Positions 357 through 63,936 of a DNA stretch of 64,000 nucleotides are shown piece by piece. The position numbers and the translations under genes were made by a program. Within the stretch, counting starts at the first letter, position 1. Each line of letters starts with the position of its first letter. Source of the stretch: a virus (Duplodnaviria; Heunggongvirae; Uroviricota; Caudoviricetes); IMG/VR virus record IMGVR_UViG_3300029998_000014; one strand, given 5' to 3'. The notes below the pieces were generated by a model, which was given only the letters and a program-made list of their open reading frames with translations, was not told the DNA's origin and did no database searches.

Positions 357-1100
357 TTATATTTTATCCCATTCATCATCAGACAAACTATTTATTTCTT
401 TCTTTGAAGAAGGTATATTAAAATGTTTACACCATTTTCTAATAGCATTATCTGATCTATTGTATAATTTACCAATATTAATAAATGTTTCTGTGCGAAC
501 TAAAGTTTTTAAATATTCACGAGTTATACCAAGTTCATCGTAAAAATCATTAGCTATTCGTTTAGCAGAACAACTTAAACATAAACCACTTACAGAAGAA
601 CTTGTTATAGTATTACCACAAGAATTACAATATAATGCATCTATAACTTTATCTTTAACATTTTTACCTTTATAATTATCAGTAAAAGCATGACAGTTTG
701 GACATAATAATTTAAGATTATTTAATTCATTATTAGTTTTAATACCATCTATGTGGTGTGTTTCTAATGGAATAGGTTCTCCCATTCATTTAGTATTATC
801 ACAACATTCACATTTATGTTCTTTTAGATTATTTTTTAATAATTTATCTCTTAACTTACTTGTTTGTGTATATGCTGAATCTTTACAAAAGATTGTATCT
901 AAAGTGTACACATTCTTAGTTTCATTTGAAGAATTTCTTTTAAAATGAATTGTGCTAATTTGATGTTTTTTTATCTTAGTTTGAATTGTTTCATAATTAC
1001 CAGCAGTTAAAGGCAACCCATAATATCTACACACATCTGCAAAAGAATAACTTTCTTTTACAATTTTTTCTAAATTTTCTTTTGAATATTTGTTTTCCAT
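357..1100 (-). CDS. HNH endonuclease with CxxC zinc finger. Continuous only if the in-frame TGA at 786-788 is read as sense.
   Basis: Track ORFs 786..1136 and 357..785 lie in the same frame and are separated only by TGA (plus-strand tca at 786-788). The joined protein reads ...KCECCDNTK-W-MGEPIPLETHHIDGIKTNNELNNLKLLCPNCHA, i.e. the HNH motif spans the TGA. Likely start at MENKYSKE (1100). Confidence 0.7.
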
Positions 1101-1206
1101 AAATTGAACTATTATATTAATAGTACAAAGATACAAAAAATTTTCGAAAGTGCAAAATATATTTAGTTAAATATTGTTAATAGCAGAAAGAAACCACCGA
1201 AGTGGT

Positions 1207-1743
1207 TTATTCAAATAATCCTGAAGGTGTATTATGAAATTTATTATATAAAACATCTAATGTATAGGATTCATTATCTTTATTAACAAATAATAATTCT
1301 TCATCAATTATTGTCGGAGTGTAATTCTCCTTTAATACTTGTAAAAATGATTTAGTTCTTGTTACTGTGCCCCCAAATCTTGGATCATCTCCATAATTAA
1401 TGATATAAGTTCCTGACGATGGTGTCATACTAGCAAGAACATCATTATGAACATATTCTGATCTACCATCATGAGTTATTGTTTGACTAAATTCTTCAAG
1501 TAAACCTCTAATCATATCATTACTGATATTAAATTCATTAGCTCCTGATATTTTATATTTATCCTCATCATTCATAGATTGACTACTCATAGTAATTGTT
1601 TGAACTTTTCCAAACAATCTACGCATGCTTTCAACAACTCCAAAAAGAGGTCTTGGACCTCGTCCATTTAATGCATCTTCAAACCATTCTAAAGACTGCA
1701 TTAATACTTTATCACCTACTTTATATCGCTCTGTACCTCTCAT
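1207..1743 (-). CDS. Paralog family A, member 1 (unknown function)
   Basis: Shares N-terminal KVGDxVxxxSLxWF, mid FNISNDMIxG and C-terminal ENYTPxIDxxxLxFxxxDNxSYTL motifs with the next three ORFs. Confidence 0.6.
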   Translation of the reverse strand: MRGTERYKVGDKVLMQSLEWFEDALNGRGPRPLFGVVESMRRLFGKVQTITMSSQSMNDEDKYKISGANEFNISNDMIRGLLEEFSQTITHDGRSEYVHNDVLASMTPSSGTYIINYGDDPRFGGTVTRTKSFLQVLKENYTPTIIDEELLFVNKDNESYTLDVLYNKFHNTPSGLFE

Positions 1744-2098
1744 ATATTTCTTTTAAACTATATGCATCATTATTATCATTTATAAAATACAATCCACCTT
1801 CATCAATAAGTGGTGTATAATTCTTTTCTACATATTCAGGAAAAGATGAAGCTATTCCTTCAATCATATCATTACTAAAATTCCAATGACGTGGATCATC
1901 TACTAAGTGATATAAAGGTATATATGCATAACCTGCTTCATTATTTGAAATTACTTGTTCTTTACCAAAAAACTGACGCATATCATAAATTAATCCACCT
2001 TCAACAGCTACATGATTTTCCATCATTTCATCAAACCAAGCTAATGATTTTAGTCTAACAACATCACCAATTTTATACTTCTTTAAAGAACTCATCAA
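1721..2098 (-). CDS. Paralog family A, member 2
   Basis: KIGDVVRLKSLAWFDE ... WNFSNDMIEGI ... KNYTPLIDEGGLYFINDNNDAYSLKEIYERY. Overlaps neighbours by about 25 nt. Confidence 0.6.
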   Translation of the reverse strand: MMSSLKKYKIGDVVRLKSLAWFDEMMENHVAVEGGLIYDMRQFFGKEQVISNNEAGYAYIPLYHLVDDPRHWNFSNDMIEGIASSFPEYVEKNYTPLIDEGGLYFINDNNDAYSLKEIYERYRAI

Positions 2099-2531
2099 AT
2101 ATTTCTTTTAAAGTAAATGAATTATTATCTTTATCAGTAAATGTTAAAGTTTCACCATCAAGAAATGGAGTATAATTCTTTTCAAGATGTTCAGGAAATT
2201 TATTTGGAGTAATAACATCCCATGAATATTGATCAGGATCAATTATATTTTCATGTCTATGTATTAATTCAGAAGTTTTTATATTATCAATCATTTGATC
2301 AGTATACGTATATTCATTATCACTACCACCACTGCAACCTGCTAAAACATATCCACAATAATTTGTATCAACATGAGTAATAACTTGAATTGTTCCAAAA
2401 TAAGGTCTCATATCACTAGCTAAACCTAATCTAACATCACCTCTATCGTCATGTACATCAAACCAATCTTTAGATTTCAAATGTACACATTGTCCTACTT
2501 TATACTTAACTGTTGGTAGTGAATCTCTCAT
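2073..2531 (-). CDS. Paralog family A, member 3
   Basis: KVGQCVHLKSKDWFD ... YTDQMIDNI ... KNYTPFLDGETLTFTDKDNNSFTLKEIFDEF. Confidence 0.6.
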   Translation of the reverse strand: MRDSLPTVKYKVGQCVHLKSKDWFDVHDDRGDVRLGLASDMRPYFGTIQVITHVDTNYCGYVLAGCSGGSDNEYTYTDQMIDNIKTSELIHRHENIIDPDQYSWDVITPNKFPEHLEKNYTPFLDGETLTFTDKDNNSFTLKEIFDEFFKEV

Positions 2532-3075: not shown

Positions 3076-3128
3076 TTTCCATCTTCATTTAACTTGGGTA
3101 ATCATCCCAATTTTACCTAATTTATTTG

Positions 3129-3200: not shown

Positions 3201-3258
3201 GGTTGTATTGTAGACAGTACTATCTTGTAGAACCAATACTAATTTTATATCTACTTTG

Positions 3259-11303: not shown

Positions 11304-11642
11304 TTATAGTTTTATTAATTTAATAAATTTTGAAGTGTCTTGTTTAATAACATCGTGTTGAAATCTTTCATAAAATTTAATATCAACTGCTTCAAATTCA
11401 TGAACAAACCATCCAAATTTTTGAAGTTTAATAATATCTGCTTTAGGAAACCATTGATATAAACCCTCTAATGATTCAGTAACTGATAACCAGCCTACTA
11501 ATTTAGGATCAAAATCCATTTCAAGTTTTGAATTTAAACAAAAATTAAAATCATTATGAATTAATCCTGTAAAAATACCTTTATAATCATACCATAAACC
11601 TTGATGGGTATTTATGTTACATACTCTGTAGTATTTTTTCAT
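11304..11642 (-). CDS. Hypothetical protein
   Basis: 112-aa ORF; overlaps natV by ATGA. Confidence 0.45.
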   Translation of the reverse strand: MKKYYRVCNINTHQGLWYDYKGIFTGLIHNDFNFCLNSKLEMDFDPKLVGWLSVTESLEGLYQWFPKADIIKLQKFGWFVHEFEAVDIKFYERFQHDVIKQDTSKFIKLIKL

Positions 11643-12538
11643 TTTTCAGTATTTTTTAATAAGTCAACTAATAACTTTTTATGTTCTCCAACCAAGATTT
11701 TGTCTAGCTCAGGACCGTATGGGAACCATTTTAAGGCAGCAATATCATCTTGAGGTTGTGGACTACCAAAAGTATATTTACATTTGTATAAATGCGTCAT
11801 AATTTTAGCATCATGTGAATTCTTATATCGCCAATCTTCTACACGTTTTGAACAAACGAATTCAAAGTCAGCAAGTTCAAGACCTGTTTCTTCTCTACCT
11901 TCACGACGAGCAGCAGCTTCATCGGATTCATCAGTAACATCAACAAATCCTCCAACAAAACACCATTCTTTTTCATCAGGTTTTTGACCTAATAGAATTT
12001 CACCTTTTTCATTAAAGATTGCAACATCAACTGTTGAAAATGAGCGGGGATATTGTGAAAAAACCGAATAAATTATACCAGCTCTGAAATCAGATGATGC
12101 TAATATACGTCCGGCAACTTTCTTTCTAATATCTGTTGCAGATATATAGACTTCTGGTTCAAGTTCAGTTGTTTTCCAATTTCCAGTATAATATGGAATA
12201 AACGAATCTTTACCTCCATAAAGAGTAACTGTTCCAGATGGAAAAATATCTCTTACTTTAGTACGAATTTGAGTAGACCATACTTCATTGGATTTACAAT
12301 CAGCAAGTGGTACAATTGAAGATATTCTATTTCTAAAATGTGCTTCGATCATAGCTTTACGGGTAATAAAATCCAATGGATTTCTTTGAGTACCCATTGC
12401 AGATGTAGTTCCTAAGAATAAAATTACCTTTTCGTGGTTTGCAAGAACATGTTCAATTAACTTGATATGTTCAGTATGCAATTCGTGTAGCTGAAATCTC
12501 CCGATAACAACTCCAATTTCTGTTTGAGTTTCGTTCAT
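11639..12538 (-). CDS. natV: Bifunctional NMN adenylyltransferase (NadM-type) + Nudix hydrolase (NatV-like)
   Basis: N-terminus GVVIGRFQLHELHTEH resembles the NadM nucleotidyltransferase motif (GRFQPxHxGH). The C-terminal half has the Nudix box REGREETGLE... Confidence 0.8.
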   Translation of the reverse strand: MNETQTEIGVVIGRFQLHELHTEHIKLIEHVLANHEKVILFLGTTSAMGTQRNPLDFITRKAMIEAHFRNRISSIVPLADCKSNEVWSTQIRTKVRDIFPSGTVTLYGGKDSFIPYYTGNWKTTELEPEVYISATDIRKKVAGRILASSDFRAGIIYSVFSQYPRSFSTVDVAIFNEKGEILLGQKPDEKEWCFVGGFVDVTDESDEAAARREGREETGLELADFEFVCSKRVEDWRYKNSHDAKIMTHLYKCKYTFGSPQPQDDIAALKWFPYGPELDKILVGEHKKLLVDLLKNTEK

Positions 12539-12906
12539 TATGGATTTAAAAATTGTTTTAGCAATTCATCATTTAATATTGTGTCTGAATTATTTGCATA
12601 AAATTCCGCAAAATCAAACATTTGTTGTTTAGTAAATTTAGGAATATTAATAAAATATAATTCTTTAAATTGTTCAAAAGTAATTTCTTCTCCTCTAAGT
12701 TGATCAAATATACCTTGTACAATATCTGATCCAGATCTCGCCTCAAGATTATTTACTACAATAGAAATATCATTACTATCTGAATGTTCTTTAATGTTAG
12801 TTGTGTGTGATCCTACCCATGAACAATTATTTTTAAATATTATTTCTTGAACAAATTTAAATTGATCCCTAGTAAGATGATGTATTTTAAAATTTTCGAT
12901 TATCAT
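12538..12906 (-). CDS. Paralog family B, member 1 (unknown function)
   Basis: N-terminus MIIENFKIHHLTRDQFKFVQEIIFKNNCSW; C-terminus FAEFYANN. Confidence 0.55.
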   Translation of the reverse strand: MIIENFKIHHLTRDQFKFVQEIIFKNNCSWVGSHTTNIKEHSDSNDISIVVNNLEARSGSDIVQGIFDQLRGEEITFEQFKELYFINIPKFTKQQMFDFAEFYANNSDTILNDELLKQFLNP

Positions 12907-13274
12907 AATTTTAAGAAGTCAGTTAATACATCATCTGGAGATGATGCGCCAACTATATTGTTAGTGTAATATTCAGCAAATGCAAGGATTTTCTCTCTAG
13001 ATATACGTAAAGTATTAGCATATTTTTCTTTAAATTGATCATATGTTAATTCTTCTCCTTCAAGACCATCAAATGTACTTTGGGTAACTACTACACCGGA
13101 TCTTAACATACCTTTAGATGTCATACATAAAGTAATAGTATTACTAGGACTAAACATTCTTAAATCTTTATCTAAGCTGCTTCCCCATCCACCACCATCG
13201 CGAAATACCATATTTTGAACAATTTTAGATTGTTCATTATCAAGATGATATATTTTAAAAGGTTTTATTTCCAT
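12903..13274 (-). CDS. Paralog family B, member 2
   Basis: MEIKPFKIYHLDNEQSKIVQNMVFRDGGGW ... FAEYYTNN. Confidence 0.55.
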   Translation of the reverse strand: MEIKPFKIYHLDNEQSKIVQNMVFRDGGGWGSSLDKDLRMFSPSNTITLCMTSKGMLRSGVVVTQSTFDGLEGEELTYDQFKEKYANTLRISREKILAFAEYYTNNIVGASSPDDVLTDFLKL

Positions 13275-13647
13275 TTTTTGGTTTTATAAAGTTATCAAAT
13301 AATTGTTCTATTGTTAATTCATCATTTAAATGATCCATACAATATTTAGCAAAATCAATACAAGTTTGTCTACTTGTTTCACCTTTACCAAAATATCTAA
13401 TTTTAAATTCTTCTAATGTTATTTCAGGATTATCATGATTATGAAAATATCCTCCAATAGTTGCATCACCAGTTATAGTATTATTTAAATAATGATATAA
13501 CCCTTTCCACGAACTACCTTGGCTATCAACAAGATTAACTTCTGATTTACCATTTCTCCATTTTGAACCATTTTGAAATAATAGTTTTTGAACAAATATG
13601 GACTCTTCTGGATTATTTACTCTTATTTTAAAATTCTCATTTATCAT
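13255..13647 (-). CDS. Paralog family B, member 3
   Basis: MINENFKIRVNNPEESIFVQKLLFQNGSKW ... FAKYCMDHLNDELTIEQLF. Confidence 0.55.
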   Translation of the reverse strand: MINENFKIRVNNPEESIFVQKLLFQNGSKWRNGKSEVNLVDSQGSSWKGLYHYLNNTITGDATIGGYFHNHDNPEITLEEFKIRYFGKGETSRQTCIDFAKYCMDHLNDELTIEQLFDNFIKPKNGNKTF

Positions 13648-14032
13648 TTTTCAGATTTAATATATATTCATCATATAATTCTTCAAATGTTTTTTCATCA
13701 TTTAAATGGTTCATACAATATTGTACAAACAAAACATATTTATTTTTTTCTGAATGAATAGAGTCAGTTACATATTTACTACAAAAATCTGCAAATGATA
13801 TTTCATTTTTATCATGTCTATTAAACGATGATGTAGAAGTTATATCAGTAAATCCTCCAATTTTTTTAGTTACAGAATTATATTCAAGTCCATTCCAATT
13901 TATATTTGGATTAGGTCCAAATAAAACTGTTTCTTGACCTTCTCTCCATTTAGCTCCATTAGAAAACAAAGTTTCTTGAACTATTTTATGTTCTCTTTCA
14001 TCTGCAATTTTAATTTTAAAACTTTCAATCAT
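13637..14032 (-). CDS. Paralog family B, member 4
   Basis: Start placed at MIESFKIKIADEREHKIVQETLFSNGAKW ... VQYCMNHLNDEKTFEELY. Confidence 0.55.
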   Translation of the reverse strand: MIESFKIKIADEREHKIVQETLFSNGAKWREGQETVLFGPNPNINWNGLEYNSVTKKIGGFTDITSTSSFNRHDKNEISFADFCSKYVTDSIHSEKNKYVLFVQYCMNHLNDEKTFEELYDEYILNLKNDK

Positions 14033-14393
14033 TTTTCCAATCTTTAAATAGTTCTTGTGGCGTTTTTTCATCATTAAGGTGATCCATGTAATATTCAATG
14101 AATTTAAACATGATATCAGTAGTAATTATAACATTTTTAGTTGAAACATTAAAAATATCATATTTTTCAATAAATTCATCATAAGTAATTTCTTTATGCT
14201 CATGATCATCAAAATGTACATTAGTATTTCCAAAACCAGTCATTTGTTTTGAATGATATCTATAACAAATTCCTTCATAATAAAATGAAGATAAAAATTT
14301 CTCTAATAAACCCATACTACTTAATATTCTCTGAACAGTTTTTATTTGATCAGGATTACTAACTTTCATCTTAAAATTTTCTACTATTTCCAT
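14025..14393 (-). CDS. Paralog family B, member 5
   Basis: MEIVENFKMKVSNPDQIKTVQRIL ... IEYYMDHLNDEKTPQELF. Confidence 0.55.
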   Translation of the reverse strand: MEIVENFKMKVSNPDQIKTVQRILSSMGLLEKFLSSFYYEGICYRYHSKQMTGFGNTNVHFDDHEHKEITYDEFIEKYDIFNVSTKNVIITTDIMFKFIEYYMDHLNDEKTPQELFKDWKND

Positions 14394-19283: not shown

Positions 19284-19600
19284 CTTTTTAATTGATTCAC
19301 TAATGCATCAAAAGCACTAATACGTGGTTTAGCATTATGTACATCCCACCAATAAGTGATAGTTATTAACTGACACTTAGGTTCTTCGAAATTATACTGT
19401 GATGCTAATTTACACACGTTTTCATAAGTAAATGTTGGAAGAAAATCATCTATCTCAAAAATTGAGGATTTATAACCCTTATCTTTAAGAGTGATATTCA
19501 AACTCCAACACATACTACAGAAATTCAAAGCATTCTGATAGATTAAATACCTAGCTTTAGCTTCTTCAAATATTGCTATTTGATCATTTACGGGAATCAT
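19274..19600 (-). CDS. Hypothetical protein (3' end overlaps the tRNA-like element)
   Basis: 108-aa ORF. Confidence 0.4.
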   Translation of the reverse strand: MIPVNDQIAIFEEAKARYLIYQNALNFCSMCWSLNITLKDKGYKSSIFEIDDFLPTFTYENVCKLASQYNFEEPKCQLITITYWWDVHNAKPRISAFDALVNQLKRGI

Positions 19601-22514: not shown

Positions 22515-22727
22515 TCAGTCACATGTAATATTTGATGGGGGCATAAACCACCCTTTATACCTAAATCCTCCGAAACGTATATCATACTCAATAGTATCAT
22601 CAATAAGTTGTCCTATTAATGGATTCATAAGTTTTCTAATGTTCCAGTGTAAGGGAGTTTCATATTCATAGTTCCATAAACAATCTCGTATGAATTCCTC
22701 TTTAGTTTTAATTCTTATTATACTCAT
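22515..22727 (-). CDS. Hypothetical protein
   Basis: 70-aa ORF. Confidence 0.35.
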   Translation of the reverse strand: MSIIRIKTKEEFIRDCLWNYEYETPLHWNIRKLMNPLIGQLIDDTIEYDIRFGGFRYKGWFMPPSNITCD

Positions 22728-33342: not shown

Positions 33343-33753
33343 TCAACCACCGAAACCGTGACCACCACCGAAGCTATGACCTGATGATCCAAATCCACCT
33401 GAGCGAGATGATGAACCAGTACTATGTGAACCACTGAACATTGATGAACGAGTTGGTGCTGCAGTACGGAAAGCCGGTACAGATGACGGACGAGTAATTA
33501 CATGATTTGCAGAATTACGATAAGTTCCAGAAGAAGGATAATAATGGGTTACACCTGAAGGACGACCGTTCATAGATGAATAAATCATCCAATAACCAGC
33601 GCTATTCCATACAGAGCGATTACCACTTTCATCATAGTATTCTTGCCCCGCTGTTGGTGACATAGGATACCCTGAATTTCTTCTACAAGAAGTTGCGCTT
33701 CCTGCTACCGCTAAAGCTACTAAAGCGGCAAAAATTGCATGCGTTTTTTTCAT
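33343..33753 (-). CDS. Secreted Gly/Ser-rich protein
   Basis: Signal peptide MKKTHAIFAALVALAVAGSATSC; C-terminus GGFGSSGHSFGGGHGFGG. Confidence 0.5.
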   Translation of the reverse strand: MKKTHAIFAALVALAVAGSATSCRRNSGYPMSPTAGQEYYDESGNRSVWNSAGYWMIYSSMNGRPSGVTHYYPSSGTYRNSANHVITRPSSVPAFRTAAPTRSSMFSGSHSTGSSSRSGGFGSSGHSFGGGHGFGG

Positions 33754-36598: not shown

Positions 36599-37009
36599 TT
36601 ATTTATATCGAGGTAAATCTTGTTTAATTTTACTATATTCATTTCCTCCAATCATTAATCCATTTTTGTAAGCATGAATTTTATTTTCAGAATCAGTACA
36701 CCATTCAAGATTTACTAATGAATTATTTAATTTATTTCCATCTATATGATTTACTTGTAAATTTTCAAAGATTGGTCTAAATGTTAACATTACTATTCTA
36801 TGAACATGTAATGTTTTTATTCCATTTCTATTTTCAGCAGTAAATCTTAAATATCCAAATTTATTAGGAGATAATTTTAATATTTTCCCTTTTAATTTTC
36901 TTCCAATTTTAGATATTCTATTTAAACTTCTTATTCTTCCTAAATTAGAAACTTGATATATTTCTTCATATTCAGGAATGTCTTTTCAGATTTCTTCTAT
37001 TTCTTGCAT
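36599..37009 (-). CDS. HNH_3/NUMOD4 homing endonuclease with in-frame TGA at codon 8
   Basis: Minus-sense ATG CAA GAA ATA GAA GAA ATC TGA AAA GAC ATT CCT GAA TAT ... gives MQEIEEI-W-KDIPEYEEIYQVSNLGRIRSL...HVHRIVMLTFRP...NHIDGNKLNNSLVNLEWCTDSEN. Stops with TAA. Confidence 0.65.
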
Positions 37010-48226: not shown

Positions 48227-48299
48227 AATGATAGAGTTTTGTTTGTTAGTAGTTTACTTTCCATTCAAGACCTGCTGGGGGTAGAAGAGATGACTGTCC

Positions 48300-48766
48300 A
48301 CCCACTCGATTCATAAAAATAAAAAAATTTTTTCAAAAAAAATTATTCAGAACTTCCTAAAAATTATTTTCAATACTTTTTATATCTTCTACCTTTTAAT
48401 AAAATTAATTTTACTACGCGCGCGTTCGTATATATAGTAAACTTTTGCGTTTGATACAACAAATTTTGCGTATCAATATGTAAAGTTTTACGGACAGCCA
48501 CATTAAGTATAGAATTATTAAGTATATATTAAGTATATGGAAACCTTGTAATTCACTGTGTCACAATAACTTAACCGTTTTCATACAAACTCGAGCGTAT
48601 CATTTGAAAATTCCGACGTATCATTTGAGATTTTTTGCGTATCATTTGGAGTTATCTTATTGACTATTAACCGATTACAAATGATATGCTCGAAGTAATT
48701 GTATATCAGTGACTTAACATTTTTTAACTATGTGTATAGTATTTTTGTCACACAAATTTCTTATCT
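48300..48766. promoter_or_regulatory. Divergent intergenic region with A/T tracts and iteron-like repeats (candidate origin / early promoters)
   Basis: ATTAAGTATA x3 (48502-48540). GCGTATCATTTG x3 direct (48595-48648), one inverted copy (48678-48689), and further GTATCA/TGATAC copies at 48450-48475. A8/T8 tracts at 48310-48345. Confidence 0.45.
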
Positions 48767-49872: not shown

Positions 49873-50244
49873 ATGGAAGTAATACAACACTTCGTTCGTA
49901 ATGACGACCATGATGAATTATACATTATGGAAATTGAAGGGAAAGCTTATGCTAGGATGTATTGATTCCATGATGATCCAAAATCAGTTTACTTAAACTC
50001 TTTAAGTGTTGAGAATAACGAAAGAGAACAAGGACTTGGAACTAAAATGCAGGAACTAAGAGAGAAAATAGGAATAGAACTCGGAGCTACACAATCCTTT
50101 TTATGAGTTAAACGGGATAGTTGAATGTATGAATGATATACCCGAAGAGGTTATAACGATTTCTCAGATTACACAGATGATGATAGTATGATATGAATGA
50201 TTAAAATGTTAAATGATAACAATACTAAATACAAAGAAGACTAA
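49873..50244 (+). CDS. GNAT-family N-acetyltransferase containing 5 in-frame TGA codons (read as Trp) and no TGG
   Basis: ATG 49873, TAA 50242. The translation with TGA=W reads MEVIQHF...YIMEIEGKAYARMYWFHDDPKSVYLNSLSVENNEREQGLGTKMQELREKIGIELGATQSFLWVKRDSWMYEWYTRRGY...SMIWMIKML. The Q/RxxGxG/A GNAT motif (QGLGTKM) is present. This gene is absent from the standard-code ORF track. Confidence 0.7.
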
Positions 50245-52429: not shown

Positions 52430-52858
52430 ATGGAAGAAATACTAAAGAAATTTAATTACAAACCCACAGAAGAAAATACTTGGGTTAAAGGTGAATGGAC
52501 TGTTAGATTTGATGATGAACTCGTCGAAGTTTTTAACGATCCTAATAAAAGTGCAGGCGAATATTATAGTTCACCAATTGCAACAGTAGATTTAGAATTA
52601 ATATTAATGGAAGTTGATAGGAAAAATCGCTGACCAATCGTTACTATGGTTACTGATATGATTACCGATGTAAATGCAGAATCAGAAAATGCAACTGGAA
52701 ATACTTATATAATGTTTACTCCTCATAGAGTATGGTTAAAAGATTGGTTAAGGTTATGGGGTCAAGAAGAAAATGGAAGTTATTCTATTACAGGTAACAA
52801 TATCTTTGTTGTTGATTCAACACTAAGTAAAGTAATAGATATTACAAAACTAATATAA
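52430..52858 (+). CDS. Hypothetical protein, continuous through TGA at 52631-52633
   Basis: Track ORFs 52430..52633 and 52646..52858 are in the same frame, separated by TGA plus 4 sense codons (...EVDRKNR-W-PIVTMVTDMI...). Confidence 0.45.
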
Positions 52859-52887: not shown

Positions 52888-52960
52888 ACCTTTGTAGTGT
52901 AATGGTTAGCACACAAATCTTCAAAATTTGTAAGTGTGAGTTCGAGTCTTACCAAGGGTG
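52888..52960 (+). tRNA. Opal-suppressor tRNA, anticodon UCA, tRNA-Trp-derived (tRNA-Trp(UCA))
   Basis: ACCTTTG TA GTGT AATGGTTA GCAC A CAAAT CTTCAAA ATTTG TAAGT GTGAG TTCGAGT CTTAC CAAGGGT G. The anticodon loop is C-U-UCA-A-A. A1-U72, G73, the D loop and the T loop UUCGAGU match the E. coli tRNA-Trp architecture. Confidence 0.9.
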
Positions 52961-52978
52961 CAAAATGATAGAATAAAT

Positions 52979-53892: not shown

Positions 53893-56157
53893 ATGAACGC
53901 AGGAAAGAAATTTTTGAGTGACTTAAAACTTCACTCTGACTACTTAAAGTGGAGACCAGAAGAAGGTCGATACGAAACATGGAATGAAGCATGTGAGTCT
54001 ATAATCAATGGTCATAAAGATCATTATGCAGATGTAGACCTAAGTAAAGAATTAGAATACGCATTGAAATATATGCAATCTAAAACGGTACTAGCTTCAC
54101 AACGAAATCTACAGTATAGAAATGAGCAGATCGAACGTAACAATGCAAGACTTTATAATTGTTCATCTATGTATGCTGCTAGAAATAAAATATTCCAAGA
54201 AGTATTTTACTTAGCATTAAGTGGTTGTGGTGTAGGATTAGGATTACTTATTCCTTTTGTGAATAACATTTCACAAGTAAATAAAAGAACTAAAGGGACT
54301 AAAACATTTATTGTTCCCGATTCAATTGAAGGATGGTCTGATGCATTTGGTGTATTGATGTCATCATTCTTCATTGATAAACAACCTTTTCCAGAGTATG
54401 CAGGATACGAAATTAAATTTGACTATTCAGAAGTAAGAGAAAAAGGTGCATTCATTAGTGGAGGATTCAAAGCTCCAGGACCTGATGGTTTAAAACAATC
54501 ATTTGAAAAGATCGAAGAGTTCTTAAATAAATGGATTACATCAGAAGGCACTAAACTAAGACCAATCGCTGTATGTGATATTCTATGTCACATCTCAGAC
54601 GCAGTATTATCAGGTGGAGTTAGACGTTCTGCTCTTAACATGATTGTTGATCCAAATGATGATGAAATGATTAATGCTAAAGTTGGTAACTGGAGAACTA
54701 ATAACCCACAACGTGGAAGAACAAATAATTCGGTGTTACTTCTTAGAAGTTTAACCGGAAAAGAAGAATTTGAAAAGCTTGTTAAAATGAATGATGGATA
54801 TTCTGACATTGGTTTTGCATTTGCTAACTCATGGTTTGATATGTTCAATCCTTGTTTCGAAATTCTTAAACACCCAATTCTTCATTCAAAAATTAGTACA
54901 AAAATAAATGATGTATCTTATGATAAGATAGAAGAATTTATTAGAGATAATGAAGACAAACTAGGTGTAGCATTCTGTAATCTTTGTGAGATTAATGCAG
55001 AACAATGTGATATAGTTGAGAATTTTTATTCTGCGTGTATTGCTGGTGCAATCATTGGAACACTACAAGCAGGTTATACATCATTTCCTTATCTTGGAGA
55101 AACCACTGAAAAGATTGTAAGACAAGAAGCTCTATTAGGAGTATCTGTTACAGGATGGATGAATAACCCAATGTTGTTTAACACCGACATTTTAAAACAT
55201 GGTGCATCTTTAGTTAAAGAAACAAACAAGACAATAGCTGAAAAGATTGGAATTAATCAAGCTGCTAGAACGACATGTGTTAAACCATCGGGTAATGCAT
55301 CTGTAGTATTGGGAACTGCGTCAGGTATTCATCCTGAACATTCTCAAAAGTATTTTAGAATCATGCAACTAAACAAAGAAAACGATACAGCCAAATGGTT
55401 GAACAAACATATGTCTTATCTTTTAGAAGAAAGTGTTTGGTCAAGTACTGGATCTGATTATGTTGTATTTGTTCCTATTGAGAATCCTATTGAGGGATTA
55501 TATAAGAAAGACGTAAAAGGTGTTAAACATCTTGAACTAATAAAACTAGTACAATTAAATTGGGTAAATGAGGGAACTAATCGCGATCTATGTGCATATC
55601 CTGATGTGAATCATAATACATCTAATACTGTTATTGTTGATGATCAAAAAGCTGTTATAGATTATATTTGGAATAACAAACATGACTTTACAGCAGTATC
55701 CTTTATATCTGATTACGGAGATAAAGATTTTACACAAGCTCCATTCACATCTGTATCTTCATTAGATCAACTAATGAGTGACTATGGAAAAGGTGCATTA
55801 TTCGCATCTGGATTAATTGTTGATGGACTACATTATTTTAACGACAATCTTTGGATTGCTTGTGATATGATTAAAGATAAATCAGTTCCTATTACTGGAA
55901 CAAGAGAACAAGTAATGCTTAAGAAATATTGGTTGGCTAGAGCAAAGAAATTTGCTAACAACTTCTTTGGAGGAGATTTACAAAAGACTGTATATTGTTT
56001 AAAAGATGTACATCTATTTCATAAATGGGAAGTAATTAATAGACAATTTAAACCAGTTGACTTTGGAGAGATTCTAAACAAGCCAACATATAAAGACATT
56101 AGTGACACAGCGGCCCAAGCTTGTAGCGGAGGTTCATGTGAGATCACTAGATTATAA
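53893..56157 (+). CDS. nrdJ: Ribonucleotide reductase, class II (adenosylcobalamin-dependent, NrdJ-like)
   Basis: 754 aa. Thiyl-radical motif FCNLCEINAEQC (compare SNLCTEI in class I/II RNRs). C-terminal redox Cys pair ACSGGSCEI. 14 Trp, all TGG, and no in-frame TGA. Confidence 0.7.
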   Translation: MNAGKKFLSDLKLHSDYLKWRPEEGRYETWNEACESIINGHKDHYADVDLSKELEYALKYMQSKTVLASQRNLQYRNEQIERNNARLYNCSSMYAARNKIFQEVFYLALSGCGVGLGLLIPFVNNISQVNKRTKGTKTFIVPDSIEGWSDAFGVLMSSFFIDKQPFPEYAGYEIKFDYSEVREKGAFISGGFKAPGPDGLKQSFEKIEEFLNKWITSEGTKLRPIAVCDILCHISDAVLSGGVRRSALNMIVDPNDDEMINAKVGNWRTNNPQRGRTNNSVLLLRSLTGKEEFEKLVKMNDGYSDIGFAFANSWFDMFNPCFEILKHPILHSKISTKINDVSYDKIEEFIRDNEDKLGVAFCNLCEINAEQCDIVENFYSACIAGAIIGTLQAGYTSFPYLGETTEKIVRQEALLGVSVTGWMNNPMLFNTDILKHGASLVKETNKTIAEKIGINQAARTTCVKPSGNASVVLGTASGIHPEHSQKYFRIMQLNKENDTAKWLNKHMSYLLEESVWSSTGSDYVVFVPIENPIEGLYKKDVKGVKHLELIKLVQLNWVNEGTNRDLCAYPDVNHNTSNTVIVDDQKAVIDYIWNNKHDFTAVSFISDYGDKDFTQAPFTSVSSLDQLMSDYGKGALFASGLIVDGLHYFNDNLWIACDMIKDKSVPITGTREQVMLKKYWLARAKKFANNFFGGDLQKTVYCLKDVHLFHKWEVINRQFKPVDFGEILNKPTYKDISDTAAQACSGGSCEITRL

Positions 56158-56173: not shown

Positions 56174-56884
56174 ATGGGAAAAGGCACACGAGAAAAGCGT
56201 ACTGAGAAACGCGAGAAAAACAGATTACCCGAAAAACAATCTAACTTAGTAAATGATTTCAAACCAAAGAATGAGAAACAACAAGAGTTTATTAACCTTA
56301 TAAATGATAGAGAGATTATCATTGCTACAGGTCCTGCTGGAACAGGTAAGACATATGTAACATTAGCAACAGCTTTATCATTATTAGGTTCAATCTATAA
56401 AAAGGTTATTCTTGTAAAGTCAGTAACTACTATTCCCGGAGAAGAAATAGGATTCCTTAAAGGTGGAATGGAACAGAAAATGGAACCATTTATAATGTCT
56501 TATATGTGAAATATTGATAAGATCTGCGGAGATAAATCTGCACAGAACTTACTTGATAAAAAAATAATTGAAGTATTACCACTAGCTTTTATTAGAGGTT
56601 TATCAATTGATAATGCTATTGTAATAATCGATGAAGCACAAAACATAGATAATCATACTTTTAAAACAATGATGACTAGAATTGGAGAAAACTCAAAATA
56701 CATTCTTCTTGGAGATAGTGAACAAATAGATAGACGTAAGAAAAGCGAATCGTGTTTAGCGAAAGTTATTGAGATATTTACTGATTCAGATATTATTGGA
56801 TCAATAGAATTTAAAGATGAGGATTGTGTGAGAAATCCAATCATTCCTATAATTTTATCTAAACTAAGAGAGAACGGAATCTAA
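56174..56884 (+). CDS. phoH: PhoH-like ATPase with one in-frame TGA (56507-56509)
   Basis: ATGPAGTGKTYVTLATA (Walker A) ... LAFIRGLSIDNAIVIIDEAQN (PhoH signature). The frame is continuous only if TGA is sense (...FIMSYM-W-NIDKICGDKS...). Start at MGKGTREKR. Confidence 0.85.
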
Positions 56885-57102: not shown

Positions 57103-57561
57103 ATGACAGAATTACTAGTAGGCGGTGCAGTAACAATTGCAGTATCAGCATTTACTTTCCTTTTAGGAAAGGGTAAAAATCAAGCTGAAACAGAAAAGCT
57201 TGAAAAAGAAACAGAGAAAATAGAAATCGAGACTAAGTTCGATGAGGTTAAATTACTTAAAGAAATTAATCAAAACTTATCAGATCAATACGAAAAAAAT
57301 GATAAGAGATGGACTGAACGTTACGCCGAAATGGAAAAAAAGTGAATGACTATTGTAAGCCAATATGAAGTTTATAAAACTCAAACTGAAAAACGTATTT
57401 GTGAACTTGAAGAAATTGTAAAGAATCAAGATAGAGATAAATGTTTAGGTGATTTATGTCCTACTAAAATAGAATATAATAAGATCCTAGCAAAAAGATT
57501 AGAGAGAAAAAGAAACTCCGCTATGAAAAAATTTAATCAAAGCGGTACAAAACAGGAATAA
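57103..57561 (+). CDS. N-terminal TM + coiled-coil protein, continuous through TGA at 57343-57345
   Basis: Track ORFs 57103..57345 and 57346..57561 are in the same frame (...EMEKK-W-MTIVSQYEV...). TM helix LLVGGAVTIAVSAFTFLLG. Confidence 0.45.
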
Positions 57562-57565: not shown

Positions 57566-58492
57566 ATGGATAATGCGAATGTAAAATTTAATGAATTGAA
57601 AGTAGATAAGGAAGATAGCTGCGTAATGTATAATGACGAGCTCCACAAATATTGGACAAAGAAAACCAATCAAGCGTGTATATCAGCAACTACACTAATC
57701 CATAAATTTGGAACATTCGATCCAATCTTCTGGAGTGCTTATAAAACATTAGAATCACTCATAACAGAAGATGAATTTAAAACAATTAAACCAACTCTTT
57801 TAGATAGAAAAAATTTTAAAGATGAACACTACGAATCCTTTGGTATAACTAAGGAAACGTTTGAAGAAAGAAAAGCCGAAATTCTAAAAGAATGGGATAG
57901 AAAACGAGATGAGTCTTGTATAAGAGGTACAGCAATCCATAAGCAAATGGAAGATGGACACTTAGATGGAAAGACTGCTGAGTTACAATATTTAAATTTG
58001 GGAGGTTCGTTTAAAACAGACATTACTAACAATCTAAAACCTGGAGAACAAGGTGTTTATCCAGAATTACTTTTAAGTAGAGTATCCGATGATGGGGAAC
58101 TTAGAATTGCAGGTCAAGCAGATTTAATAATAGTAGACGGATATGATGTCTACATTTTAGATTATAAGACTGGAAAGAAGATGGATACTAAATCTTATTT
58201 CGACCGTAAATTAAAGAGATCATCTAAAATGAAATATCCTTTAAACAACCTTGATGATTGTAACTTCATGCATTATTCTATGCAATTAAGTTTATATGCT
58301 TGGATGATTCAAAAAGCTAATCCTCTTTTTAATATAAAGATGCTCTTACTTATTCACATTGATCACGACGGTAATGTAAAAAACTATGAGTGCGATTATT
58401 TAAAAGCAGATGTGGAAAGAATGCTTGGATATTATAAAACCCAAATTAAAAATGAAGAATTTAAAAAATCCAGAGAAAAAATTGTATTTTAA
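57566..58492 (+). CDS. PD-(D/E)XK nuclease (RecB/YqaJ/lambda-exonuclease-like)
   Basis: Motif AGQADLIIVDGYDVYILDYKTGKK (D...(D/E)xK). Confidence 0.6.
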   Translation: MDNANVKFNELKVDKEDSCVMYNDELHKYWTKKTNQACISATTLIHKFGTFDPIFWSAYKTLESLITEDEFKTIKPTLLDRKNFKDEHYESFGITKETFEERKAEILKEWDRKRDESCIRGTAIHKQMEDGHLDGKTAELQYLNLGGSFKTDITNNLKPGEQGVYPELLLSRVSDDGELRIAGQADLIIVDGYDVYILDYKTGKKMDTKSYFDRKLKRSSKMKYPLNNLDDCNFMHYSMQLSLYAWMIQKANPLFNIKMLLLIHIDHDGNVKNYECDYLKADVERMLGYYKTQIKNEEFKKSREKIVF

Positions 58493-58823
58493 AATAGCCG
58501 TCGGAATTTTTGTATTCCTATTGGTGTGTATAGCATTCTCAATACAGAACGACAAATACAAAGTCTTAGATAATAATTATAAGATTGAACAATTAAAGGT
58601 TGACAGTTGTAATAAGAAAATAAAAGCATATGAATTATTGAACAGAAAAGCAGATAGCACTATATGAGTACTAGAGAAAAAGAATGATTCTCTTGGAGAT
58701 ATAAAACCAATAATATTAATGTACTATGATAAGAAAATTAAAAGTATTAACAGTGCTTCTGCTTATGAGCACGCTCGTTGGATGGACTCAATCGTCACCA
58801 AAGTGAACAGTATGAAAAAGTAA
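58410..58823 (+). CDS. Small TM protein, continuous through TGA at 58665-58667
   Basis: ...KADSTI-W-VLEKKNDSLGDIKPIILMYYDKK...ARWMDSIVTKVNSMKK, then TAA. TM helix FKIAVGIFVFLLVCIAF. Uses both TGG and TGA. Confidence 0.4.
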
Positions 58824-58863
58824 TCCTGATACTATTATTACTTACAATTACACAAAAACTGAT

Positions 58864-59178
58864 TTGACTAACGTTAGATTATATGTTACTGGATTGGAAG
58901 AAACTCGAGAGTTATATAACATCGAAATACAACAATCTAAAATAAAGGATTCTATAATTATTGAAAAAAATAAAAAATTAGATAACTTTAAAAATATAGT
59001 AATAGAAAAAGATTCTATTATAGGTTATACTGTTACAGAGTTTAATAAAGCAGACAAATGGGGAAAATCTCAAGAAGTCTTAAAAACTAAATATAAAAAA
59101 CAAGCTGCAAGAACTCCATTATTTATGGGTATTAGTAGTGCAATAGGATTTATATTATGTCTATTATCAATAAAGTAG
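58864..59178 (+). CDS. Hypothetical protein with C-terminal TM anchor
   Basis: 104 aa; C-terminus TPLFMGISSAIGFILCLLSIK. Confidence 0.45.
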   Translation: MTNVRLYVTGLEETRELYNIEIQQSKIKDSIIIEKNKKLDNFKNIVIEKDSIIGYTVTEFNKADKWGKSQEVLKTKYKKQAARTPLFMGISSAIGFILCLLSIK

Positions 59179-59429
59179 CACAAGGGTTCTTCAATGAACT
59201 AATGAATAAAGAAGCAGAAACACACACCAAACGAATGATTCATTGTAAACAATGTAAATTGTTATATAATGATAGTTTGTTTGGAGAAACATGTAATTCT
59301 GAATTATATGTAAATCCGGAAACAAATGAAGTTTCTACAACAGATAAACCAGGATTTAAGAATGGATGCGGATGTATCCTTAGATCCAAGACACGAGTAC
59401 CAGATGCACACTGCCCTTTAGGCAAATGA
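59157..59429 (+). CDS. Cys-rich zinc-finger-like small protein
   Basis: CKQCK ... CNSE ... CGC ... HCP. Confidence 0.4.
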   Translation: MSIINKVAQGFFNELMNKEAETHTKRMIHCKQCKLLYNDSLFGETCNSELYVNPETNEVSTTDKPGFKNGCGCILRSKTRVPDAHCPLGK

Positions 59430-59445
59430 TAACAATGAAAATGTA

Positions 59446-60897: not shown

Positions 60898-61254
60898 ATG
60901 ACAATGATTATGGAAAAAGAAATTATGCCCCTTGGATTAAATATATTTGTACAGCCTTATGCTGTTAATCCTTATTTGCAAGTAGTATCTGCTGGTGGAC
61001 TACAATTAACTAATGGAGAGTTTCAAAATCCTGATAGTGGAGAAGTTGAACAACTAACATCACATATTAAATGTGGAATAGTTTTAGAAGTTGGAAAAGA
61101 TTGTAAACAAGTAAAAGTTGGAGATGATGTATTTTATAATGCGCATACAACTACACCAATTCCTTTTATGGGAAGGGGTTTTATACTAACACACGAACCT
61201 GGTGTTATGTGTATTATAAATGAAGGGTTAAAAGAAAGATTTAAAAACAATTAA
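60898..61254 (+). CDS. groS: GroES-like co-chaperonin (Cpn10/gp31-like)
   Basis: VVSAGGLQLT...GIVLEVGKD...VKVGDDVFYN parallels GroES SAGGIVLT...GEVLAVG...VKVGDIVIFN. Sits immediately after groL. Confidence 0.55.
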   Translation: MTMIMEKEIMPLGLNIFVQPYAVNPYLQVVSAGGLQLTNGEFQNPDSGEVEQLTSHIKCGIVLEVGKDCKQVKVGDDVFYNAHTTTPIPFMGRGFILTHEPGVMCIINEGLKERFKNN

Positions 61255-61279: not shown

Positions 61280-61555
61280 ATGATTACAATTTGTAATAAT
61301 GCAAAAAGAAACACTATGATTAATGAACAACGAAACAACGATAAGCAGTTTTTCCTACCTGGAGATGTAGTAAGTCTTAGACAAGATGTACCAAATAAAC
61401 CCACTATGATTGTGGTAAAAAAAGTTACTAAAACTATTAGAACTTCTGATGTAAAGAATGATTTCTTCCAAGGAATTCAATGTATGTGATTCACAACAAC
61501 TGGGGAGATTGTAAAAGATACTTTTAATACTAAAGATCTTTTGAAAATACAATAA
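61280..61555 (+). CDS. Hypothetical protein, continuous through TGA at 61487-61489
   Basis: ...GIQCM-W-FTTTGEIVKDTFNTKDLLKIQ, then TAA. Confidence 0.35.
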
Positions 61556-62151
61556 TGAGATCTGGAATATATTTAATTAGAAATATAAATAACAATAAAT
61601 GTTATATTGGAAGTTCTAATAATTTAGAGTATAGAAAATGTATGCATTTTTCTAAATTAAAACATAATAAACATATAAATCAACATCTTCAAAATTCATA
61701 TAATAAATATGGAAAAGAATCTTTTATATTTACTATTATTGAAGAATGTGAATGTATGAAAGAAATTCTATTAGATAGAGAACAATATTATATTAATACA
61801 ATGAATCCTGAATATAATATTTTAAAAATTGCAGGAAGTACATTAGGTTTTAATCATTCTATTGAAACTAAACTTAAAATTAGTAATTCTACAATAGGTA
61901 TTAAAAAATCTAAAGAACATTGTGAAAATATAAAAAATTCTCAAAAAGGTAAAACTTTAACAGATGAACATAAACAAAAATTATCAGAATCTGCAAAAAA
62001 TAGAACTAAACAAGGACATACTACTAAAATAAATATAGATGGAATTAACTATGATTCTTTAAAAGAAGCATCAGAGTTATTAGGAATAAAATATAACACT
62101 CTTCAAAGAAGATTAGTTAATCCTAATTTTCTAAATTACATTAAATTATAA
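61555..62151 (+). CDS. GIY-YIG homing endonuclease with NUMOD3 repeats
   Basis: GIYLIRNINNNKCYIGSS...R...H (GIY-YIG); ETKLKISNSTIG / HKQKLSESAKN NUMOD3-like repeats. Confidence 0.8.
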   Translation: MRSGIYLIRNINNNKCYIGSSNNLEYRKCMHFSKLKHNKHINQHLQNSYNKYGKESFIFTIIEECECMKEILLDREQYYINTMNPEYNILKIAGSTLGFNHSIETKLKISNSTIGIKKSKEHCENIKNSQKGKTLTDEHKQKLSESAKNRTKQGHTTKINIDGINYDSLKEASELLGIKYNTLQRRLVNPNFLNYIKL

Positions 62152-62167
62152 TCACTAAACAATTAAA

Positions 62168-63355
62168 ATGACCGACGAAAAGAAACAAGAATTATTTCCG
62201 TATTTCGCTTACACTTATTCTAAACAAATAAATCCAGAGAAATACGGAAATTTATCTTCTGATGAATGACAAACTGTAATACAGGATAGTCCAGAAGATA
62301 TAGATCAGATTAGCCAGGCTGCTGGACAACTTGCAGATGAAGATTGAGATGCACTCGATCAACAATACTCTCAAGAACAACCTCAAGAAAATCAAGCGCA
62401 ATATGCTGCAAAAGGAGCCAAAATTAAAAAACTAAAATCTATGAAATGTGGATGTGGTTGTAATATGGTTACTGTTAAAGAAGAAGGTGGTAAAATGTCA
62501 TCTAAATGTGCTTGTAAATGTGGAGGTAAAATTAAACATCAAAAAGGTGGAAATGTTATACCATTAAAAAATGATGCAACAACTATAGCAAAAAATAAAG
62601 AAAGAATTAAATCACGTCCTGCTATTGCAACTAAAGATAGTACAGATGAATTATCTGAAAATTTAGCACATTTATCAATGGATAGTTATACAAGTTCTGG
62701 AGATTTAAAAAATCAATATGATAAAAAATTTGATGCAACTGCTTCTGCTTTAACTCGTCAAAAAAATAAAGGAAAATCTGGCTTTGATGCTAATGGATTT
62801 CCTAAAAAACAAAATGGTGGAATAATAAACAATAAAAAATCAAACAACATGAAAGAAAATTTAGGATCTATTCAAAGTATATTAGATTCATTTAAAAAAG
62901 GTGGTAAAATGAAATGCCAAAATGGTGGAGATCTAAGTCCTAAATCAGCAATAGTTGCTAAGAATGGTTCTAAAGCTCCTAAAAGAATTACAACAGAAAA
63001 TAAATCTGTTGAAATAGAAACCGCTAAATGTGGAAAAAAATTAGCTAAGAAACAAGTTGGTGGTAAAGTTAAAGCATCTATTAATACTGCTGCTTCTGCA
63101 ACTAGTAAATTACCAAAAATGAATTCTCAAAGTGGAGCTAATTCAAGTACTGTGCCAACAAATCCTGATGGATCTGCAAAAGCTCCAGCAAGAATTAAAA
63201 AAGGACAAACTGGAATTACAGCACCAGCACCCAAAAAAAATAAATTGCCAATTGTAAATGGTAAAAAAGTTCCTGATGATGGAGCTGACTACTCTGTACA
63301 AGGTCCAGCAAATAAATCTGAAAAGGTAAAAAAATCTTTTTCTCCTAAAAAATAA
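62168..63355 (+). CDS. Lys-rich low-complexity protein with repeated K-x-(Q/K)-GG modules and 2 in-frame TGAs
   Basis: ATG 62168 is in frame with track ORF 62441..63355. TGAs at 62267-62269 and 62342-62344 (...SSDE-W-QTVIQ..., ...ADED-W-DALDQQ...). Repeats KHQKGG, KKQNGG, FKKGGK, CQNGG, KKQVGG. Confidence 0.55.
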
Positions 63356-63360
63356 AAATT

Positions 63361-63936
63361 ATGAAATTTTTTGTATATGATAATGTAAATGGAAATGTAT
63401 CTCTCGAAGACACAAGTATACTTTTAATAAAGGAATTTGAAGCTTTGTTAGAAGATAATAGAAATAAAAGTAGTGCCGACAAAACGGGTAAAAAACGGTT
63501 GAGAGCATTTAAAGAATTTAAATTTATATATCTGTTCTTTGATTGAGAAAGTCCTTATTTTCAATATACAGAACAAGATAAACATGCAGAGGCTATGAAA
63601 GATTCAGGATTGTCAGACGAAGAGTTTGACGATCCTAAATTTAGAATGGCGTGTCAAAAATATGATGAAATCCAAAATTCATCATTAGACATAAAATTAT
63701 TAAAGGCGGCAATGAATGCTGTTGATAATCAAATATTTTATTTAAGTAATGTAGATTTACAAGAAAGAGATCCTATTACGGGAAAACCAATCTTTAAAAG
63801 TAAAGACTTAATTGCTGAGATTAAAGGCTGTAAAGATTTAATATCTACTTTACGTGAATTACAAGTTCAAGTTAAGAAAGGATTAGAAATTGAAAGTAAC
63901 GTAAGAGGTAATACTGAAATTGGATTATTCGATTAA
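63361..63936 (+). CDS. Hypothetical protein, continuous through TGA at 63544-63546
   Basis: Track ORFs 63361..63546 and 63595..63936 share a frame (...FIYLFFD-W-ESPYFQYTEQDKHAEAMKDSGL...). Confidence 0.45.

Follow-up and report, generated by a model that had tools for sequence, protein, structure and literature searches.

A large phage with crAss-like packaging genes that probably reads TGA as tryptophan in one gene block and as a stop in the other

The 64,000-nucleotide stretch of the viral record IMGVR_UViG_3300029998_000014 (Caudoviricetes; this whole stretch is referred to below as the window) includes genes that remain continuous only if the codon TGA is translated, next to genes in which every tryptophan is spelled TGG. 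Which residue TGA encodes, whether it also serves as a stop, and whether recoding is assigned to single genes or to larger units are the questions raised by this locus. In an earlier sequence-only reading, gene-specific recoding of TGA to Trp was proposed for at least ten genes and compared with the early/late split of recoded crAss-like phages. The reading of TGA as Trp, the partial rather than genome-wide extent of recoding and the likeness to the crAss-like split are retained here. The best explanation, to which a probability of about 0.8 could be given, is a large phage with crAss-like packaging genes, partial block-wise recoding of TGA to Trp and a tRNA(UCA) of its own.

The GC (guanine plus cytosine) content of the window is 30%. 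Up to ~48.6 kb, almost every gene is on the minus strand; from 48.7 kb onward, almost every gene is on the plus strand. The sign of the GC skew flips at the same point (~48.6 kb). These two parts, called here the minus and the plus block, are separated by a divergent intergenic region (48227..48766), which forms the border between standard-code and recoded genes. The window was extended by 8 kb past its end and 8.8 kb before its start with the contigs ENA k141_285602 (ERZ27248704, 175 kb) and JGI 3300037257 (Ga0397553_0000002, 88.7 kb), recovered through exact protein matches, which gives ~81 kb analysed out of a phage genome of at least 175 kb. Two sets of relatives were used for comparison: the syntenic IMG/VR contigs L001-L005 (~75% nucleotide identity) and the syntenic Logan contigs L094-L096 (88-90%). 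In the minus block, the comparison is limited to 41.8-48.4 kb (L096, L094) and a single NUDIX orthologue (L032).

The meaning of TGA could be deduced from orthologous codons. The open reading frames (ORFs) of the ten genes listed earlier were checked and found to be continuous only with TGA as sense, and each was then compared with relatives. This comparison confirmed all ten, together with two recoded genes absent from the earlier list (58726-59178 and 59157-59432), as single conserved genes that are read through TGA. In codon alignments, TGA of the window faces TGG or TGA, and some TGG of the window face TGA. Such interchange sites are codon 112 of the PhoH-like gene, 70 and 81 of 57103-57561, 27 and 112 of 58726-59178, 91 of 59157-59432, 70 of 61280-61555, 34 and 60 of 62168-63355, 62 of 63361-63936 and many terminase and portal positions. 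Since TGA and TGG swap both ways at orthologous codons, and since TGA occupies invariant Trp columns in the GNAT, HNH and NUMOD4 proteins, TGA encodes Trp. At variable sites, its partners are occasionally Tyr, Gln, Lys or Asp. The earlier remark that every recoded gene ends in TAA or TAG is uninformative, being a direct consequence of treating TGA as sense.

The GNAT acetyltransferase gene (49873..50244, +; weak Pfam matches to Acetyltransf_1 and Acetyltransf_7) contains five sense TGA (49963, 50104, 50122, 50134 and 50194) and no TGG. All five correspond to Trp residues invariant in four homologues; in relatives these codons are TGA too, except for TGG at position 31 in L093. The gene of the PhoH-like ATPase (56174..56884, +) has TGA as its sole Trp codon (56507-56509). 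The Pfam domain (E = 2e-57) spans this codon, where L001 and L003-5 have TGG and L002, L094 and L095 have TGA. A 152-aa protein (57103..57561, +), whose hydrophobic N-terminal stretch was judged by eye to be a membrane span followed by a coiled coil, is encoded with one TGA (57343-57345) and one TGG; position 81 is TGA in the window and TGG in L094/95, and position 70 shows the opposite.

The 142-aa gene at 52430..52858 (+; one sense TGA at 52631-52633, five TGG) raised doubt initially, its distant relatives being aligned only up to the TGA. The doubt was removed by homologues that cover its full length (141-142 aa) and, in L094-96, have TAT (Tyr) in place of the TGA, so that it is one gene. 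Three small overlapping genes, 58452-58823, 58726-59178 and 59157-59432 (58452..59432, +), carry sense TGA at 58665, 58804, 58813 and 59427. Relatives of the first, which was listed earlier as 58410-58823, are unbroken across the TGA site and have CAA, AAA or GAT there (Gln, Lys, Asp). Site 58804 is TGA or TGG in relatives; at site 59427, which directly precedes the TAA stop, L001 and L003 have TGG. In the 91-aa gene at 61280..61555 (+), the sense TGA (61487-61489) is TGA in L001-5 and TGG in L094/95. The genes 62168-63355 and 63361-63936 (62168..63936, +) have sense TGA at 62267, 62345 and 63544 and no TGG, and the two codons swap among L001-3. Recoding continues beyond the window: the GIY-YIG gene (277 aa), which starts at 63939 and runs past the window end, contains four TGA and no TGG, the large terminase gene ten TGA and four TGG, and the portal gene two TGA and one TGG.

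Protein conservation runs across every TGA, and the aligned residue is Trp rather than Cys, selenocysteine or Gly, which leaves a negligible probability that the interrupted frames are pseudogenes, adjacent split genes, selenoprotein genes or genes with TGA as Gly (code 25). Gly codons are aligned at none of the tabulated TGA sites. Selenocysteine could be suggested by the 'SeC' label given by ARAGORN to the tRNA(UCA); however, this label stems from the anticodon only, and the tRNA is an ordinary cloverleaf of 74 nucleotides scored by the plain tRNA model, not by the tRNA-Sec model. An ATG directly 3' of TGA in two genes (786-788, 57343-57345) could be taken for the start of a second gene, but the catalytic HNH motif spans the TGA.

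The distribution of the two codons follows the two blocks. Genes of at least 50 aa in the minus block (1-48.6 kb) contain 209 TGG, and the only sense TGA accepted there as credible are two, each in an HNH gene, versus 16 TGA and 34 TGG in the plus block within the window, or 42-44 TGA and 40-42 TGG with the 8 kb past the window included (Fisher test, minus versus plus block: p = 5.7e-26). With code 4 in place of code 11, the coding density of the minus block barely rises, from 0.84 to 0.86; that of the plus block increases from 0.86 to 0.93 inside the window and nearly doubles, from 0.44 to 0.84, in the following 8 kb. Relatives have the same arrangement: minus-block orthologues in L096 and L094 spell Trp exclusively as TGG, and plus-block orthologues are TGA-rich. 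The partition unit is thus mainly the gene block and not the single gene, contrary to the sequence-only reading. The mapping of recoding onto small accessory or mobile genes, proposed in the same reading, is an artefact of the window end, since terminase, portal and their neighbours past 64 kb are the most heavily recoded. The absence of in-frame TGA noted for several long genes was reproduced (TGG counts: ribonucleotide reductase 14, GroEL 1, NadV 10, 885-aa protein 23, 717-aa protein 15).

Other in-frame TGA of the minus block were rejected as sense codons, being located upstream of real starts, in overlaps with tRNA or tmRNA genes, or in low-complexity small ORFs. Minus-strand ORFs of 51-63 aa with internal TGA (41.6-48.6 kb; 32.06 kb) were judged non-coding on the basis of low-complexity translations and conservation at the nucleotide level.

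In the minus block, TGA likely acts as a stop, as far as gene ends and their surroundings indicate. Under code 11, eight ORFs of at least 60 aa end there in TGA. One of them is the N-terminal half of the HNH gene 357-1100, with 142 codons from TGA to the next in-frame TAA or TAG; the remaining seven behave as true gene ends, with the next in-frame TAA or TAG 0-11 codons away, as after ordinary stops (control median 8). The stops of the block are then 61 TAA, 12 TAG and 7 TGA. Four genes apparently ending in TGA are clustered at 11639..14393 (-; TGA at 11639-41, 12903-05, 13637-39 and 14025-27), each TGA overlapping the start of the next gene; sequence context and an alignment of the paralogues are the basis of this assignment. 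ATGA stop-start overlaps are found at 11639/11642 and 12903/12906, and three more TGA stops are overlapped by the start of the next gene. Another TGA (19584..19586, -) apparently terminates gene 19584-19931, and the next gene starts 14 nucleotides upstream of this TGA, at 19600. The apparent ends of a 70-aa ORF (22515-22727; TGA at 22515..22517, -) and of a GC-rich lipoprotein gene (33343-33753; TGA at 33343..33345, -) were assigned by the ORF end and the distance to the next TAA or TAG in the former case and by a following terminator-like hairpin with a T-rich tail in the latter. In L032, the NUDIX orthologue terminates three residues short of the window's TGA, and the formyltransferase ORF upstream of the window has TGA at codon 315 and is called by code 11 as a gene of 314 aa. 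Backup TAA or TAG after the TGA stops are not significantly enriched (Mann-Whitney p = 0.08), and no visible difference was found between the bases 3' of sense TGA and those 3' of stop TGA.

Some of these genes have features of their own. The region 12538-14393 (-) is composed of 4-5 tandem paralogues of ~125 aa with the N-terminal motif M-I-x-x-F-K-I and stop-start overlaps, three of them ending in TGA. This family is adjoined by a phage tmRNA gene (14407-14815, -; Rfam, 107 bits), the predicted tag of which, GNKTISFARTAFMAAA, is ended by TAA TAG. The lipoprotein-like gene (33307-33753, -), with a signal peptide containing Cys and a Gly/Ser-rich C-terminus, has a composition unlike its surroundings of 30% GC and may have been acquired from a host.

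A uniform code 4, with TGA read as Trp throughout by both phage and host and with the uneven distribution due to chance, is very improbable, despite the AT-rich genome and the choice of code 4 by some public gene callers for these contigs. The block counts differ (p = 6e-26), and TGA should be dominant everywhere in an AT-rich code-4 genome. Moreover, TGA closes seven genes of the minus block, with start-stop overlaps, the coding density of the block is barely changed by code 4, and the phage has its own tRNA(UCA). Related cultured phages infect Bacteroidota (Cellulophaga, Flavobacterium, Bacteroides), and these bacteria are not known to depart from the standard code. The code is therefore not uniformly 4, and relatives keep each joined ORF as one gene. 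From the TGA stops of the minus block, its TGG-only usage and the Bacteroidota hosts of related cultured phages, we infer a host with the standard code.

The opal suppressor tRNA with the anticodon UCA is encoded at 52888..52961 (+). It was detected by ARAGORN (74 nucleotides, short variable loop), scores 62.9 bits with the Rfam tRNA model and folds as a cloverleaf. Its A1-U72 pair, G73, C35 and A36 correspond to the bacterial Trp identity elements, and the tRNA looks Trp-like by these positions. A tRNA(UCA) occupies the equivalent syntenic locus in every relative covering it (L002-L005, L094-96). Class-I release factors were sought by the motif GGQ[HNS][VI]N, which is absent from the window and from 10 kb on either side, in agreement with the statement of the sequence-only reading that the window has no release-factor gene.

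In several relatives, a different tRNA(UCA) is syntenic with 52888-52961 of the window (L094 6158-6250, L095 4849-4941, L096 10623-10715, L002 3564-3656). It has 92-93 nucleotides, a variable arm of ~21 nucleotides, an A1-U72 pair and G73, and is most like the phage's own 82-nucleotide tRNA-Trp(CCA), which is located just upstream of the window (L088 11811-11892) and has a near-identical T arm. A long variable arm is normally a property of Ser, Leu or Tyr tRNAs. The suppressor thus seems to have been replaced by a non-orthologous tRNA(UCA) between relatives of 88-90% nucleotide identity, judging from the compared loci; relatives with the long-arm form still swap TGA and TGG. Ribozymes of the HDV-like or theta type reportedly stand beside the suppressor tRNA in recoded gut phages; next to this one, none was found at E <= 1.

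The exception within the recoded block is the class II ribonucleotide reductase (RNR; 754 aa, 53893..56157, +; phrog_367, E = 6e-78; PDB match 1L1L, a class II reductase), with 14 TGG and no TGA. It is the only plus-block gene deviating from a uniform TGA share of ~60% (Fisher p = 1.1e-5), and the deviation survives correction for ~22 tests, in which each plus-block gene was compared with the rest. GNAT (5 TGA/0 TGG), an exonuclease (0/4) and 52430-52858 (1/5) do not deviate significantly, and the others have one or two Trp codons. The contrast between TGA-only and TGG-only genes drawn in the sequence-only reading therefore concerns, RNR excepted, genes with 1-5 Trp codons each and fits sampling noise. 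In L094-96 and L001, RNR likewise has no TGA. Its composition is ordinary for this genome (GC 0.33; GC at third codon positions, GC3, 0.19), and no megablast match to the gene was found in the phage collection.

RNR and the PhoH-like gene are bracketed by terminator-like hairpins of 10-11 bp with T runs (53801-53827 and 56890-56913, +), which suggests from sequence features a separate transcription unit within the recoded block. Farther downstream, a short GroEL gene (482 aa; PHROG match to residues 3-297) is followed by a GroES-like gene (59446-61254, +). The usual bacterial operon order is the reverse. L094/95 have this pair of genes, which L001-5 lack.

The two sense TGA of the minus block belong to homing-endonuclease genes. 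In the HNH gene 357..1100 (-), TGA 786-788 encodes Trp105, a residue invariant in 20 homologues. The closest homologues (79% and 75% identical) are fully translated under table 11 and hence have TGG at this position. A 247-aa HNH gene of L091 (2035-2778) was considered as further evidence for TGG and rejected, the same TGA being present there and the gene having been called with code 4. In the NUMOD4-HNH gene 36599..37009 (-), TGA 36986-36988 corresponds to the conserved first Trp of the NUMOD4 motif (Pfam E = 2e-17) and is aligned with TGG in five homologues. The third HNH gene (3969-4550, -) has no TGA. Sense TGA thus occurs in two of three minus-block HNH genes versus none of ~80 other genes (p ~9e-4, hypergeometric arithmetic). 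The homing-endonuclease load of this phage is heavy. Two of the genes are insertion polymorphisms: L001-5 and L094/95 lack the GIY-YIG gene 61555-62151 (+), and L094-96 lack the HNH-like gene 52979-53545 (+), which adjoins the tRNA(UCA).

The two blocks differ in gene content. The minus block comprises 11 tRNA genes, the tmRNA gene and genes of NadV, a NUDIX protein, AAA ATPases, a glutathionylspermidine synthase, and OmpA-like and SPFH proteins. Its 718-aa protein has a homologue in Cellulophaga phage phi17:2, where it sits among RNR, tRNA and DnaB genes. The 885-, 717- and 718-aa proteins gave nothing in PDB sequence searches and in Pfam; no relatives of the 885-aa and NUDIX proteins were found in IMG/VR scans, nor of the NUDIX protein in the metagenome scan. 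The plus block is ordered as initiator-like gene, GNAT, tRNA(UCA), RNR, PhoH and small membrane proteins, then terminase, portal and further genes. Its first gene (48767-49561, +), a replication-initiator-like winged-helix gene with zero Trp codons, adjoins the divergent region. The strand switch, the cumulative GC-skew minimum and this gene coincide at 48227-49561, a probable replication origin region. Directly past 64000, a GIY-YIG endonuclease gene is followed by the large terminase (phrog_6681), the portal (phrog_6547) and further genes. The best among the terminase matches listed are crAss-like phages of Bacteroides, Flavobacterium, Cellulophaga and Azobacteroides (27-44% identity), and such matches mark the packaging genes as crAss-like. 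Neither a capsid protein nor an RNA polymerase was among the genes seen in the ~81 kb, and crAss-likeness is stated for the packaging genes.

Expression of the two blocks could be connected with the code as follows. Upon entry of the phage into a standard-code host, full translation would be limited to TGA-free genes. Accumulation of the phage tRNA(UCA) would then lead to decoding of TGA as Trp, and the recoded genes, notably those for packaging and structural proteins, would become translatable. Genes required before this switch, such as RNR, would remain TGA-free, and selfish homing-endonuclease genes could tolerate TGA at any location. What sequence comparison demonstrated is that TGA means Trp, that the phage encodes the tRNA, that the code is partitioned by block, that TGA is likely a stop in the minus block, and that relatives conserve these features. 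To these, the proposed scheme would add the expression timing, the standard-code host and a regulatory benefit.

Several observations weigh against this scheme. 'Early' and 'late' were guessed from the genes present and their synteny. Genes usually seen as early or middle (GNAT, PhoH) lie in the recoded block too, and the minus-block protein 26629-27561 has a weak match to a 'virion structural protein' (E = 1e-8). RNR is not strictly TGA-free, as its orthologue in L002 has three TGA among 14 Trp codons. Neither a release-factor gene nor a tryptophanyl-tRNA synthetase (TrpRS) gene was found in the window or in 10 kb on either side, and the scheme gives no account of competition by release factor 2. 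The scan of the genome collection with GroEL gave a single 32% match, to a metagenome-assembled genome of Gastranaerophilales, which is uninformative on donor or host. Late readthrough of the seven TGA 'stops' could add tails of 0-11 residues. Finally, free TGA/TGG flips among close relatives fit near-neutral drift as well as tuned regulation. A scan for sigma-70 promoters yielded fewer sites than in shuffled sequence and was not used.

The pattern could have arisen without any timing. Once a tRNA(UCA) is present, AT-biased mutation would convert TGG to TGA wherever this is harmless, as in genes whose products are not required before the tRNA has become abundant and in dispensable selfish genes, and the block pattern would be a by-product of purifying selection on genes used before the switch. 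We regard this as a real possibility, short of probable. TGA and TGG flip both ways between relatives of 75-90% nucleotide identity, the TGA share is statistically uniform in the recoded block apart from RNR, the genome has 30% GC, and the TGG of the closest homologues of HNH 357-1100 implies that its TGA arose in place. On the other hand, four of the five GNAT TGA stay TGA down to 60% protein identity, for which selection is possible, as is AT bias. Such drift differs from the scheme of a code switch only on adaptive value; all demonstrated steps are common to both. An import of genes is a rather improbable alternative: TGG-only RNR and GroEL would have come recently from standard-code sources and the TGA-bearing HNH genes, likewise recently, from recoded DNA, and codon choice would record ancestry rather than present function. 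The patchy occurrence of these genes agrees with it, as RNR is missing in L003-5, GroEL/GroES in L001-5, and the endonuclease genes 61555-62151 and 52979-53545 are insertion polymorphisms. However, the composition of RNR is that of the genome and the gene is TGG-only in four relatives at 88-90% identity, the TGG of the closest HNH homologues disfavours import of ready-made TGA, and GroEL is uninformative because it has a single Trp codon.

Codon choice might in addition be tuned gene by gene, as a translational timer over the block pattern, which we consider unlikely. RNR, located between two strong terminators in the recoded block, would then be kept TGA-free for production before the switch. 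The HNH genes of the standard block, with TGA at an essential Trp, would be completed only late, after the tRNA(UCA) has appeared, even if transcribed early, and the seven early genes with a TGA end would be extended by short C-terminal tails once the switch has taken place. Phage T4 confines its homing endonuclease I-TevI to late infection in a comparable manner. A timer and drift could be told apart with the help of three features: the HNH genes with TGA in the standard block, the RNR without TGA in the recoded block, and the long-arm tRNA(UCA) found in relatives.

Other RNA elements were detected in the minus block. Two RAGATH-1 hammerhead ribozymes (43215-43283 and 45697-45774, -) and one Pistol ribozyme (24005-24066, -) exceed the Rfam gathering thresholds, and the Pistol ribozyme is also found in the relative L003 (3376-3439, -). 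The segment 43336-43509 (-), which adjoins a hammerhead ribozyme, is 96% identical over 25 codon-equivalents to L096 1031-1187 and has a non-coding look; a structured RNA or a regulatory element could be located there. The tRNA array has 11 genes in the window (24-6391, -) and 24 in the window-start region together with the 8.8 kb before it (L088 5353-17579). Odd calls include a 90-nucleotide 'tRNA-Tyr(ata)' at 24-113 and an 82-nucleotide tRNA with a two-nucleotide 'anticodon'; an 86-nucleotide tRNA at 28938-29023 (-) was detected by Rfam and missed by ARAGORN.

The phage is a clean, well-conserved case of TGA with two meanings in one genome, with the boundary at the switch of strand and GC skew. 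This has consequences for annotation. Standard-code gene calling splits ~12 genes of the window and halves the apparent coding density just past it, and code-4 calling over-extends minus-block genes; a block-wise annotation with two codes is needed. Public gene calls for near-identical contigs (L091 2035-2778; L094) conflict accordingly, code 4 over-extending the minus block and code 11 fragmenting the plus block; the code-4 call of the formyltransferase has 345 aa instead of 314.

Among known systems, phages of Mycoplasma and Spiroplasma also use TGA as Trp, but they share the code 4 of the host genome-wide (PMC11210395); here, in contrast, ~48 kb of genes have no sense TGA, two HNH genes aside, and TGA is likely a stop there. 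The TAG-recoded crAss-like and Lak phages (code 15) follow the same logic, with a partly reassigned stop, a standard-code host and a suppressor tRNA (PMC9523058, PMC11210395). They differ in that TAG is reassigned to Gln and the reassignment is proteomically validated, whereas recoding here is known from sequence comparison.

The Agate and Jade phages of animal and human guts are TGA-recoded in structural and lysis genes and retain the standard code in replication genes (bioRxiv 10.1101/2021.08.26.457843). By described features, the phage studied here resembles them in having in-frame TGA for Trp, a phage tRNA(UCA), low GC and few TGA stops (bioRxiv 10.1101/2021.08.26.457843); recoding is centred on the structural and packaging side, the replication region is standard, and a code switch during infection was proposed for those phages as well. 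Differences consist in the lysis cassette, none being identified here, in the extension of recoding to PhoH, GNAT and homing endonucleases, and in the crAss-like terminase. Two Jade genomes have genes of release factor 1 and TrpRS, unlike the window and the 10 kb on either side of it.

In the zeta crAss-like phage Lera, structural and lysis genes are recoded (TGA) and replication genes are standard (PMC12386605). Lera and its relatives share with the present phage a large genome, ~26 tRNA genes, a tRNA-Sup(TCA) and TGA as Trp in large terminase and structural genes (PMC12386605), as well as two opposed gene blocks, one for nucleic-acid metabolism and tRNAs and the other for virion and packaging, and several homing endonucleases that vary between close relatives. 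Lera also has a tRNA-Sup(CTA), none of which was seen in the window or its flanks, and its helicase and RNA polymerase genes are interrupted by TGA, whereas the metabolism block is TGA-free here apart from two HNH genes. The phage collection searched with the terminase gave no match above 44% identity, and Lera was not among the matches listed. The arrangement found here matches that already described in Agate, Jade and zeta crAss-like phages, to which this phage adds another case.

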